A stretch of 64,000 nucleotides of DNA, taken from positions 2,464,001 through 2,528,000 of the forward strand of contig OY970355.1 in assembly GCA_963718525.1 (NCBI GenBank), written 5' to 3'. Origin of the DNA: Candidatus Dormiibacterota bacterium. GTDB taxonomy: Bacteria > Chloroflexota > Dormibacteria > Aeolococcales > Aeolococcaceae. The translations under genes and the position numbers were made by a program. The notes beneath the pieces are model-generated. The model saw only the letters and a program-made list of their open reading frames with translations. It made no database searches and was not told the origin of the DNA. Position 1 is the first letter of the stretch. Every line of letters starts with the position of its first letter. Below are positions 5,330 through 8,030 of this stretch, in pieces.

Positions 5330-6520
5330 CTGCTGCGAGTGATGTCCCTTATCGTGGTGTAAATCCGGGGTGACCTCAGGGCTGCCGACGAGGTAGACAA
5401 AGTAGGCCACCGCGGAGTTCTCTTGGAAGCTCTAACCCAAACCAGGAGACCCACGATGGCCCAGAACAGGATGACGCACCAGGCGCTGATCGATCAACTT
5501 CAGGGCGCGGACACGGACGTGTTGCGACGTGTCCTCGAACACGCCATGCAGCGGCTCATCGAAGCCGAGGCGGCCACGCAGATCGGCGCCGGCCCACACG
5601 AGCGAGCATCGACACGCACCACGTACCGCAACGGCTACCGAGAGCGGGTTCTCGACACCGGCTCGGGACGCCTCGAGCTGCAGATCCCCAAGCTGCGCTC
5701 TGGCAGCTTCTTCCCGTCGCTGCTCGAGCCTCGGCGACGTATCGATCGCGCGCTGCTGGCGGTCGTCCAAGAGGCCTACGTGCTCGGCATCAGCACGCGC
5801 AAGGTCGACGACCTCATGGCCGCCTTGGGTGGCTGCAGCATCAGTCGCAGCGAGGTGAGCCGGATCTGCGCGCTGCTCGACGAGGAGCTCGCCGAGTTCC
5901 GGGAGCGGCCCCTCGATGAGCCGTACCCGTACGTCTGGTTCGACGCGACCTACGAAAAGGTGCGTCAGGGTGCGCGCATCGTGAGCCAAGCGGCGGTGGT
6001 GGCCGTGGGTGTGCGCGACAGCGGCGAGAAGAGCGTGCTCGGGCTTGCGGTCGGCACCAGCGAGAGCGAGGCGTTCTGGCTGGAGTTCTGCCGCAGCCTG
6101 TCGCGACGCGGACTGAGCGGCGTGCAGCTGGTCATCTCCGACGCCCACGAAGGGCTGCGCAGTGCGCTGTCGCAGGTGTTCACTGGGGCGACGTGGCAGC
6201 GCTGCAAGGTGCACTTTCTGCGCAACATGGCCAGCGCGGTCCCCAAGCTCCACGCGCCGGCGGTGCTGGCGGTGGTCAAGTCGATCTTCCTGCAGCCGAC
6301 GCGCGAGACCGCCCGCGACGCGGTGGGGCATGCGCTCACCGTGTTGGAGCCACGCTTTCCCGCGGTGGCAGCCAAGCTGCGTGCGGCTGAGGCCGATGTG
6401 CTCGCCTACCTGGATTTCCCGGTCGACCACTGGCGCTCGATCTCCTCGACCAACGCCATCGAGCGGGTCAATGCCGAGCTCGACCGCCGCGCCAAGGTGG
6501 TGGGCATCTTTCTGCGTCTG

Positions 6521-6526
6521 TACGCT
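6521..6526 (+). promoter_or_regulatory. -10 box (TACGCT) of the IS110 circle-junction promoter
   Basis: Falls 18 nt downstream of TTGACA (7793-7798) only when the element is circularised. Confidence 0.7.
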
Positions 6527-6530
6527 CTCC

Positions 6531-6710
6531 CGTGGCAGTGGCGGAAGCACCGCTGTTGCTGCGAGGCTCCCGTGGGGCCGAGGGTGACCCGGCATTTTTC
6601 TGTCGAGCCCTCGGGCTCTGACCTGGTTAGGGCCAGTCCCCTCGGTCTTCGCGGGTGGCCGAGTGACCTCATAGCGGCGTGAATACTGAACGGCAGGAAT
6701 GTCCGAGGCC
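6531..6710 (+). ncRNA. Predicted IS110 bridge RNA
   Basis: 5' hairpin 6531-6563. Stem 6569-6588/6636-6655 encloses target guides 6591-6600 and 6626-6632 around a GAGCC-CTCG-GGCTC hairpin. Donor loop carries CATAGCGGCG (6670-6679, identical to 7797-7806) and GCAGG (6693-6697). Confidence 0.85.
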
Positions 6711-6740
6711 ATCCACCCATCAACACCACGGAGGGTCGGC

Positions 6741-7796
6741 ATGGTCATCATCGGCATCGATTGCCACACAAGGGTTCATGTGGCTGCAGCCATTGACGGA
6801 TCGGGGCAGGTCTGTGCGCGCTTCACAGCGGGTGCCAAGGCTGAGGAGCTCGAAGCGCTCACAAGGTGGGCGTGCCAACAAGCAGCCGGCCTGATCGCCG
6901 TCGAGGGCGCACGAGGCTTTGGCCTCGCGCTCACTCGATGCCTCCTCGCCGCTGGCTTGGAGGTCGTCGATGTCCCAACGCACATGACCGCTGACGGGCG
7001 CCGTCAGAGCCGCCGTCCGGGAAAGGACGATGAGAGCGATGCGGTGGTCATCGCGCGAGTTGCACTACGTGAACACGACCTGCCGCGGTTGCGTCCGGCG
7101 CATCTTGACTCGGATCTCAAACTGCTGGTGGACGCACGCGATCAGGTTGTTGCAGAAGGCACTCGTGTACGCAACCGGCTGCATGCGCTGCTGCTCACCG
7201 TGTCGCCCGGCTACCGCGATCACACCGGCGCTCTGTCGAGCAAGCGCGCACTCATCGTCGCTCGTCGCTTGGTGCTCCGAGCACGAGCGGCAGATCCGGT
7301 TCGCTGCCGCCTGGCCCTTGCAGCCATTCGCCAACTCCACGCCATCGATGCTGAAGCAGCCGGGCTGGAGGGCGAGATCAAACAAGCCGTGAGCGCAAGG
7401 CACCCGAAGCAGCTGCTCGCCATTTGCGGTGTGAGCACGCTGGTGGCCGGCAAGCTCCTCGGTGAGGCCCACGACATCACACGCTTCCCGACGGCGGCGT
7501 CGTTCGCAGCCCACGCTGGCGCCGCCCCGCTTCCGGCATCGAGCGGCGTCACGCGGCGACACCGTCTCAACCGAGGCGGCAACCGTCAACTCAACCGAGC
7601 CCTCTTCACGATCGCCATGGTGCAGGCACGCTGGCACCCTGGAGCGGTCGCCTATCTGGAGCGAAAACGTGGCGAAGGCAAGCGACCCGCCGAAGCGCGA
7701 CGCTGCCTCATGCGCCACCTTGCGGGTGTCGTCCACCGCGCCATGTTCCTCGACGCGACCGCGGTCAGCGCGAGTTCGGCCATGCCTGCCGCTTGA
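6741..7796 (+). CDS. IS110-family DEDD recombinase/transposase
   Basis: ATG after GGAGG. IGID, AVEG and KDDESDA (DEDD) motifs, plus C-terminal AGAAPLPASSG...RLNRGGNRQLNRAL with the conserved Ser. ORF intact. Confidence 0.95.
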   Translation: MVIIGIDCHTRVHVAAAIDGSGQVCARFTAGAKAEELEALTRWACQQAAGLIAVEGARGFGLALTRCLLAAGLEVVDVPTHMTADGRRQSRRPGKDDESDAVVIARVALREHDLPRLRPAHLDSDLKLLVDARDQVVAEGTRVRNRLHALLLTVSPGYRDHTGALSSKRALIVARRLVLRARAADPVRCRLALAAIRQLHAIDAEAAGLEGEIKQAVSARHPKQLLAICGVSTLVAGKLLGEAHDITRFPTAASFAAHAGAAPLPASSGVTRRHRLNRGGNRQLNRALFTIAMVQARWHPGAVAYLERKRGEGKRPAEARRCLMRHLAGVVHRAMFLDATAVSASSAMPAA

Positions 7797-8030
7797 CATA
7801 GCGGCGCCCCAACAGCGCCTCACTGCTGCGGCTGTTCACCGCCGTGCTCCAGGACCAGCACGACGAGTGGCAGGACGGTCGCCGACATTTCAGTCAGCAG
7901 TCGATGGCTCGCCTGCTCCACCCCGACGGTCCGCCGTTGCTCACCAACCCGCTCACGGAGGGCCTTGTCGCTTAGTTCACCGACGTTGTGAGAACTCCAC
8001 CGAATTCACACCACTACCCGGGACTTGACC

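Follow-up and report, generated by a model that had tools for sequence, protein, structure and literature searches.

Background

The mechanism by which insertion sequences (IS) of the IS110 group are directed to their targets by a bridge RNA is already published, and members of the same superfamily that specialise on other mobile elements are already known. [quoted passage not shown] The structural sections of Hiraizumi 2024 (PMC11208158) describe G·T pairs and flipped-out RDG bases in the IS621 structure. As for specialisation, passages of PMC11187229 report that IS4321 and IS5075 specialise on the ends of Tn21, and an attC group on other mobile elements. Here we present the analysis of an IS110-group element in a stretch of 64,000 nt (called the window below, at its full length) from Candidatus Dormiibacterota bacterium, assembly GCA_963718525.1, contig OY970355.1, positions 2,464,001 to 2,528,000 of the forward strand. 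The element, at 6512-7807 of the window, is an apparently intact IS110-group insertion sequence lying inside the transposase gene of an IS256 element. The explanation we favour, and consider very probably correct, is that it is a bridge-RNA-guided element which targets the motif G-I-F-P-N/D of IS256 transposases. Positions are those of the window, and the features described lie on the + strand unless otherwise stated.

A precise insertion between the GIF and PN codons

Based on the comparison of filled with empty sites, and on contigs that skip 1296 nt, an IS110-family insertion sequence of 1296 bp is delimited at 6512-7807. Its boundaries shift by one C (6512-7807 or 6513-7808), and in the core model the body covers 6513-7806 with a core dinucleotide on either side. 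The flanks read GGC ATC TTT at 6503-6511 and CCC AAC at 7808-7813, and the insertion is confirmed to be precise, separating the codons for GIF from those for PN in the transposase gene of an IS256 (Mutator-family) element. The left target (GGCATCTT, 6503-6510) together with the left-junction core (TC, 6511-6512) occupies 6503-6512, and the right end of the element (CATAGCGGCG, 7797-7806) together with the right-junction core (CC, 7807-7808) occupies 7797-7808. On its left the element has TC or CC as core dinucleotide and on its right CC, with no other duplication; in the window copy, target allele and donor have different first core bases.

The source genome is a single contig of 3.34 Mb, in which a second, identical IS110 copy is located at the same codons of a diverged IS256 allele, the N-terminal 351 residues of the two host alleles being 94% identical. 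The same genome also contains two uninterrupted IS256 copies, which read GGCATCTTT|CCCAAC (L004) and GGCATCTTC|CCCAAC (L006) at the site. The empty site is therefore GGCATCTT(T/C)CCCAAC, and filled and empty sites differ by exactly 1296 bp. The T/C at the first core base is an allele difference, T in the window copy and C in the other, and the left junction of each IS110 copy retains the base of its own allele. In soil metagenomes, contigs that skip exactly 1296 bases are found in 4 of the 4 runs examined, which come from three studies. An earlier note on this DNA, made by a model from the letters alone, had placed an IS110 inside an IS256 transposase gene and had reconstructed the empty site on paper; every string that it quoted for the flanks and guides lies where it was placed, and the reconstructed site exists in the two uninterrupted copies.

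The element has a long non-coding left end (6513-6740, 228 nt), a single gene and a right end of 10 nt past the stop codon. The gene (6741-7796, 351 codons, with GGAGGG upstream of its ATG) encodes an IS110-family DEDD recombinase with an N-terminal DEDD/RuvC-like domain (PF01548, E 5.8e-25) and a C-terminal Tnp domain (PF02371, E 2.8e-19), the latter matching the solved bridge recombinases of ISCro4 (E 1.3e-7) and IS621 (E 3.8e-6). In a five-sequence alignment of recombinases, D7, E55, D97, D100 and a serine (S267/S268) are invariant; judged by a partial alignment, they may correspond to D11, E60, D102, D105 and S241 of IS621. No terminal inverted repeats of the IS110 were noticed on reading its ends, no dedicated repeat search having been made.

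The target is shared across the family

We then examined relatives with about 58-95% recombinase protein identity, gathered by a scan of species genomes (9 loci), a scan of metagenome contigs (51 loci) and a plasmid search (1 record). On the whole, 52 of the 68 loci examined show the left-end start or the right end of the family. Of the 45 right junctions, 38 read on into P-N/D-x(2-5)-(I/L/V/M)-(I/L/V/M/T)-R/H-L/F, which is the C-terminal motif of IS256; among the others, two are too short but begin with PN, L028 and L036 begin with PN and then diverge, and L034, L070 and L071 run into something other than IS256. At the left junctions, 27 of 33 end in ...VVGIF, the rest being two that are too short, two in IS256 with an indel of 1 nt (L033 and L068), one ambiguous (L021) and one outside IS256 (L034). 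These junctions represent 34 distinct IS256-type flanks on the right and 24 on the left. The host IS256 genes are about 40-100% identical, and at the first four loci (L013-L017) their proteins are 40-55% identical to that of the window. With such diverse host genes and so many distinct flanks, duplication of a composite cannot explain the pattern. The earlier note had proposed that the lineage homes into IS256 at GIF|PN, which these junction counts support, and that the variation among the flanks of homologues would fall at wobble positions. In line with the latter, the codons of occupied sites (Val, Gly, Ile, Phe, Pro and Asn) vary only in their third bases, apart from the first base of Asn/Asp. 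The GIF|PN target appears from these flanks to be a property of the whole lineage and not an accident of this genome.

The lineage is found in soil Actinomycetota and on at least one plasmid. The latter, pYJNG (NZ_CP060403.1, 148.6 kb) from the cultured Microbacterium sp. YJN-G, contains the IS256::IS110 composite twice, with 100% identity between the two, and the same IS256 once more without interruption. Among the 374 genomes of the window's own class, only recombinases of 44-46% identity were found, with a different right end and no IS256 flanks, and these do not belong to this family.

Why this site should be chosen can be seen from IS256 genes without the insertion. In a sample of 151 genomes of the phylum, the site was located in 24 unoccupied IS256 genes, 12 of which have enough clean flank for a conservation profile. 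By eye, GGCATCTTYCCNRAC can be read in 13 of the 24. Among the 736 windows compared in the 12 genes, the 15-nt target window comes 6th in conservation and is the second non-overlapping peak, after QHDEW; with the own genome left out it ranks 12th and is the third peak. Since the target window is so highly conserved, a guide set on it finds its site in many IS256 alleles.

Three details of the loci may be recorded here. In L028 (3063-3175), the right flank after the PNT codons is an inverted piece of the IS256 C-terminal region, that is, a junction rearrangement. In L070 (1033-2380), whose right flank is other than IS256, the N-terminal part of IS256 passes straight into the last third of the family IS110 gene, which could reflect a deletion or the insertion of an IS256 into the IS110. 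On pYJNG, one of the composites has a gene for a MobF relaxase about 3 kb away.

A predicted bridge RNA and its guides

The left end appears to encode a canonical two-loop bridge RNA. Relatives have left ends that are readily aligned, with 35 nhmmer hits to a profile made from five, and the consensus fold of an 18-sequence alignment consists of two stem-loops; it has 42 predicted pairs, and compensatory changes are seen at 13 of these. The predicted target-binding stem-loop (6574-6649, alignment columns 64-142) has a basal stem, an internal loop and an apical hairpin, with compensatory changes at several stem pairs. On the 5' strand of its loop 1 we find the LTG GGCAUUUUUC (6591-6600), 8 nt plus two core positions (DNA letters GGCATTTTTC), and on the 3' strand the RTG GUUAGGG (6626-6632). 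The DNA GTTAGGG at the latter position is the reverse complement of CCCTAAC, and the RTG would pair with CCCCAAC of the top strand (7807-7813), the only mismatch being A·C at the third base of the Pro codon. The predicted donor-binding stem-loop follows at 6653-6714 (alignment columns 149-212), with compensatory changes at pairs 151/210, 155/206 and 156/205. It contains the left donor guide (LDG) CAUAGCGGCG (6670-6679), identical to the last 10 bases of the element (7797-7806), and the RDG AACGGCAGG (6689-6697), which would pair discontiguously with the core and the start of the left end, CCTGCGT. A further 5' hairpin (6531-6563) is predicted for the window copy only, by a single-sequence fold with a z-score of -1.0; it is not recovered in the consensus fold, and the region is variable among relatives.

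As a control for chance, the 228-nt left end was shuffled 20000 times. A 10-nt match to the left target with at most one mismatch arises in 113 of the 20000 shuffles, and the 7-nt match to the right target alone in 10117, so that the latter is weak by itself. Both target matches in the observed order arise in 10 of 20000, and an exact copy of the element's last 10 bases, as at 6670-6679, likewise in 10 of 20000.

More telling is the behaviour of the guides across relatives. For the pairing tables, seven LTG rows and six donor rows were dropped as artefacts, the search pattern having also matched the RTG context, and L033 and L068 were left out of the ungapped comparison for their 1-nt junction indel. 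Covariation between the right donor and its guide is seen at 32 of 32 loci (T with A, C with G). The LDG copies the ATAG or the AGAG of its own right end in 24 of 25 pairs (20 and 4, respectively), and at the remaining locus there is a G·T pair. For the target guides, we regard L034 as the decisive case, for it is the one clearly retargeted member of the family. Its site, GGGGTGTT-CC-TAAAC, is not in IS256, and its guides (LTG GGGGUGUUUC, RTG GUUUAGG) differ from those of the family by three substitutions in the LTG and two in the RTG, all of which restore the pairing: nine Watson-Crick pairs and one wobble out of 10 in the LTG, and 7 of 7 in the RTG. All four guides thus covary with the sequences they face.

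The surroundings of L034 have features of their own, with repeated GTGGACG words in the left flank (150-470) and a T-arm-like GGTTCGAATCC in the right flank (1554-1600). The idea that L034 sits inside a tRNA gene was dropped, for ARAGORN finds no tRNA or tmRNA in L034, L070, L071 or the reconstructed empty site of L034.

The host IS256 element and the composite

The IS256::IS110 composite is 2693 bp long (5338-8030), as defined by the extent of homology with the second copy and by imperfect IS256 inverted repeats at both ends (22 of 31 positions aligned, read by eye). It is directly flanked by 8-bp repeats, CTGCTGCG, at 5330-5337 and 8031-8038; target duplications of 8-9 bp are typical for IS256. 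The transposase gene is represented by its N-terminal 352 codons (5456-6511, PF00872), ending in ...VVGIF, and by its C-terminal 55 codons with the stop (PNSASLLRLFTAVL...DEW..., 7808-7975). The PF00872 match for 5456-6508 has an E-value of 3.6e-117 and covers profile positions 17-354 of 379. The host element has therefore the features of its family, namely a Mutator-type transposase, imperfect terminal inverted repeats and an 8-bp target duplication. The IS110 insertion deprives the transposase of its last 55 codons, and the split reading frame suggests that the IS256 is inactivated by it. According to the earlier note, the motif GIFPN follows the catalytic Glu region in many IS256 transposases; a literature look-up on the position of this residue gave no match.

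In the window, the composite splits a minus-strand reading frame (7977-8951, resuming at 5198-5410), which adjoins a large serine recombinase gene (3627-5024). The whole arrangement may be nested inside an integrated element.

Proposed mechanism

We propose the following course of events. The left end, counted here as 229 nt, would be transcribed into a two-loop RNA and bound by the DEDD recombinase. One loop would carry the guides for the target, and the guides in the second loop (6670-6679, 6689-6697) would read the element's own joined ends. Strand exchange by the recombinase (6741-7796) would then take place at the core dinucleotide, which is CC on the donor side and either TC or CC on the target side, and the circular element would enter without duplication between the Phe and Pro codons, at the insertion site GGCATCTTYCCCAAC. 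One guide would serve many alleles, as its U and G face the sites of synonymous transitions; a guide U or G opposite a two-fold degenerate position would accept both synonymous bases. When the target core is CC, a guide U faces G at the first core base in all family guides.

Expression may be provided in two ways. TTGACA at 7793-7798 overlaps the stop codon of the recombinase, and joined ends would bring it into a -35/-10 pair, TTGACA, 18 nt and TACGCT (read by eye), which would form a promoter. Given the orientation of the element downstream of it, read-through of the bridge RNA and the recombinase gene from the IS256 promoter is also possible. Hitchhiking of the IS110 between the IS256 ends is plausible, because the ends of the composite are intact, near-identical intact IS256 copies are present in the genome, and pYJNG carries composites; the IS110 might then benefit from riding in IS256.

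Weighing the evidence

Several observations weigh against the explanation of a bridge RNA aimed at the GIF|PN codons. As to the RNA itself, the single-sequence fold of the left end is no better than shuffles (z -1.0), so that the support for the structure comes entirely from the alignment; an Rfam scan of 5000-9000 with E up to 1 returned only chance-level mir-490 and CcsR1; and among the RNA sequencing runs on record there is none containing the element stretch. Three further runs bear an RNA-Seq label by guess and have it in assembled contigs; the one of these that was examined cannot show transcription. No back-joined contigs with a circle junction are present among the metagenome contig joints, which is uninformative as contigs drop rare forms. 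As to the pairing, the second core position of the LDG (G) is unpaired with the donor core, LTG position 3 fails to match the third base of the Gly codon in 22 of the 28 loci that can be compared, and at RTG position 4 an A lies against the third base of the Pro codon in 16 of 25 relatives, every one of which occupies a CCC site, which makes this pair an A·C mismatch. Pairing at LTG position 3 and RTG position 4 is evidently not required. As to the sites, 7 of the 45 right junctions are not plainly IS256, and L070 and L071 have no left end for the comparison with which L034 was recognised as retargeted. The conservation found in occupied IS256 genes (rank 1 of 586) was set aside as biased by ascertainment, and the unbiased set of unoccupied genes is small. 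Finally, the first 24 nt to the right of the IS110 in the window copy form a tract of the other allele: at 7815-7831, 5 of 5 allele-specific bases are those of the other allele (L002/L006 type), and from 7843 on, 14 of 14 diagnostic bases are those of the window copy's own allele (L004 type). The simplest readings are a gene-conversion patch that began in the identical IS110 copies and stopped shortly beyond them, or a pre-existing mosaic allele. This tract means that homologous recombination, and not a clean RNA-guided event, may have acted on the window copy or even brought it in.

Among the alternatives, the one that survives best, and which we nevertheless consider unlikely, is that the guides (GGCAUUUU-UC, GUUAGGG) were selected on an allele GGC ATT TTY CCT AAC and that the present sites are second-best off-targets. 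Such alleles exist, for CCT occurs in three of the 24 located unoccupied genes (L079, L081 and L082) and ATT in one (L080), and a contig with GATTTT at the site is present in one soil run. They are hardly occupied, however: the third base of the Pro codon in the 34 distinct right flanks is C in 30, G in 3 and A in 1, with CCT in none, and ATT appears in 1 of the 24 left flanks. The RTG with A is moreover the common type in elements sitting in CCC sites, as counted above, and four relatives have G there, which gives perfect pairing. In the LTG of the window, the single difference from the target is the guide U at 6596 against a top-strand C. Since it is the bottom strand that the LTG reads, this U faces a G and forms a wobble (U·G) instead of a mismatch. 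The sister guides in L028 (84% identical recombinase, guide matching at 10/10) and L052 carry C at this position, and the U is common only to L027 (95% identical); since the nearest sisters carry C, the U is a recent derived transition, which suggests that it costs little and is no record of another allele. The earlier note had regarded both differences as mismatches at synonymous third positions and had concluded that the guide was tuned on a different IS256 allele. It was right on the positions and on a mismatch in the RTG; ATC/ATT turns out to be a wobble, and the tuning on another allele is not supported by these data and not needed to explain them.

Clearly less probable is a passive association, in which a single IS110 landed in an IS256 and the composite was then spread by IS256 transposition, plasmid transfer or gene conversion, with no continuing preference for the site. 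Both IS256 inverted repeats and the 8-bp duplication are kept, so that the composite would be movable in trans; the identical composites of pYJNG, the identical IS110 copies of this genome and the conversion-like tract of 24 nt would all fit with such spread. Against this stands the diversity of the host IS256 genes and flanks given above, with the IS110 parts diverging in parallel to 58-95%, which a single ancestral composite cannot explain; in this genome, moreover, each left junction keeps the T or C of its own allele, and the guides match the site, with matching guide changes in L034, which sits elsewhere. That the recombinase protein or the structure of the DNA selects the site, with the matches in the left end as by-products such as footprints of earlier recombination and no RNA guide at all, is very improbable. 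The lack of RNA runs containing the element and the guide positions mismatched in most members are outweighed by four guides which a conserved fold of two stem-loops, with compensatory stem changes, places in its loops, and which covary with target and donor, are arranged as in experimentally proven bridge RNAs, and give both target matches in order as rarely by chance as the shuffles indicate.

Other IS110 elements in transposase genes

Other IS110 elements were also met in these genes. In L035 (103-1439), L038 (127-1463) and L036 (up to 1040), a different IS110, with a recombinase 31-33% identical, lies about 39 nt upstream in the same IS256 genes. It sits at the KEI/KRR codons, with junctions located to about 5 nt, and for L038 Pfam confirms that it is an IS110. 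Its own left end contains AAGGAGAUC, as in the left flank, and also the reverse complement of the right flank, 9/9 in L038. In the own genome (G000:C1:738243-738725; L011 1375-1985), the last ~135 residues of a truncated IS110 of 39% identity are matched, and this element ends with CTTGACAAAGGAGC directly against the IS256 codons RNVAS, after HFL. In L030 (2546-3170) and L031 (1215-1839), another IS110-family frame, 38-48% identical, starts about 190 nt past the family right end, in the IS256 tail after DEW. A relative of 48% identity in L055 (2962-3104), with a different right end, TTGACAAGATAGGAGC, abuts a fragment of an rve_3 integrase-core gene (E 2.6e-6) and therefore sits in another kind of transposase gene.

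The sites found so far within IS256 genes are GIF|PN, KEI/KRR, HFL|RN and somewhere after DEW, and HFLRN and QHDEW are among the six conservation peaks of the unoccupied IS256 genes. This small sample, which was collected for another purpose, suggests a wider habit of IS110 elements in conserved spots of IS256. Tentatively, and with somewhat more doubt than belief, one may go further and see IS256 genes as the habitat of several RNA-guided IS110 lineages, each set on a different conservation peak. The U or G of a guide opposite sites of synonymous transitions would then be an adaptation by which a single RNA reads a degenerate coding sequence, and these hyperparasites, carried along with IS256 on plasmids, would keep its activity in check in Actinomycetota.

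Implications

If guided as proposed, the element would be a natural programmable recombinase whose guide has been set, and through long divergence maintained, on the sequence that encodes the catalytic protein of another transposon. The mismatches and wobbles tolerated in nature (LTG position 3, RTG position 4 and the U·G at the first core base) may inform the off-target rules of bridge recombinases. The ecology of insertion sequences would also gain a layer, in which transposons are parasitised by RNA-guided transposons that possibly limit the IS256 load. Plasmid pYJNG, with two filled sites and one empty, offers a cultured and tractable system.

Comparison with known systems

Among the titles and abstract openings examined, we found no description of an IS110 aimed at the reading frame of an IS256 transposase; ISfinder and the supplements (Supplementary Data 2 of Durrant 2024, the logos and source data of Siddiquee 2024) lay outside this search and may list such targets. 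The term 'IS256' occurs 0 times in PMC11187229 and in bioRxiv 2026.08.14.744561, and its absence from PMC11208160 follows indirectly from a combined search. A similar nesting may be present in Mycolicibacterium hassiacum, for Table 1 of PMC10832570, the part of that paper concerned here, lists IS110 starts 842-1463 bp from IS256 starts, for example 2,896,931/2,897,773 and 2,920,403/2,921,245, and gives no comment by the authors on it.

The closest described systems are IS621 of E. coli and ISCro4 (PDB 8wt6, 9t56). As far as the published passages on these two describe them, the window element shares with them a recombinase of DEDD and Tnp domains, a left end that is long, non-coding and upstream of the gene, a right end that is short, as well as the two-loop RNA with LTG and RTG in one loop and LDG and RDG in the other, guides that include the core, a discontiguous RDG, and non-canonical G·T or U·G pairs. 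The precise insertion with a core dinucleotide on each side is also common to them. The protein similarity is distant, however, and confined to the C-terminal domain (E 1e-7 to 4e-6), and the core of the window element is CC (target YC) whereas theirs is CT. Unlike IS621, which targets the repetitive extragenic palindrome (REP), the window element has as its target, as known here from sequence alone, a protein-coding motif of another transposon.

In its ecology, the element is more similar to IS4321 and IS5075, which, in the relevant sections of the source on them, are likewise DEDD-transposase insertion sequences specialised on a conserved sequence of another mobile element and travelling with it. 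Unlike the window element, these members of the IS1111 group have their guide (seekRNA) downstream of the gene and possess subterminal inverted repeats, according to the same sections, and their target is a non-coding transposon end while that of the window element is a transposase reading frame. A broader likeness connects the element with the IS1111-attC group and with the REP-targeting ISPpu9, ISPpu10 and IS621, all of which use a repeated, conserved multi-copy sequence as a safe landing site, as set out in parts of Siddiquee et al. 2024 (PMC11187229). The targets of the attC and REP group are, in those parts, structured non-coding repeats. In the element described here, in contrast, it is selection on a protein motif that conserves the target, and the variation of the target is for this reason confined to synonymous positions.

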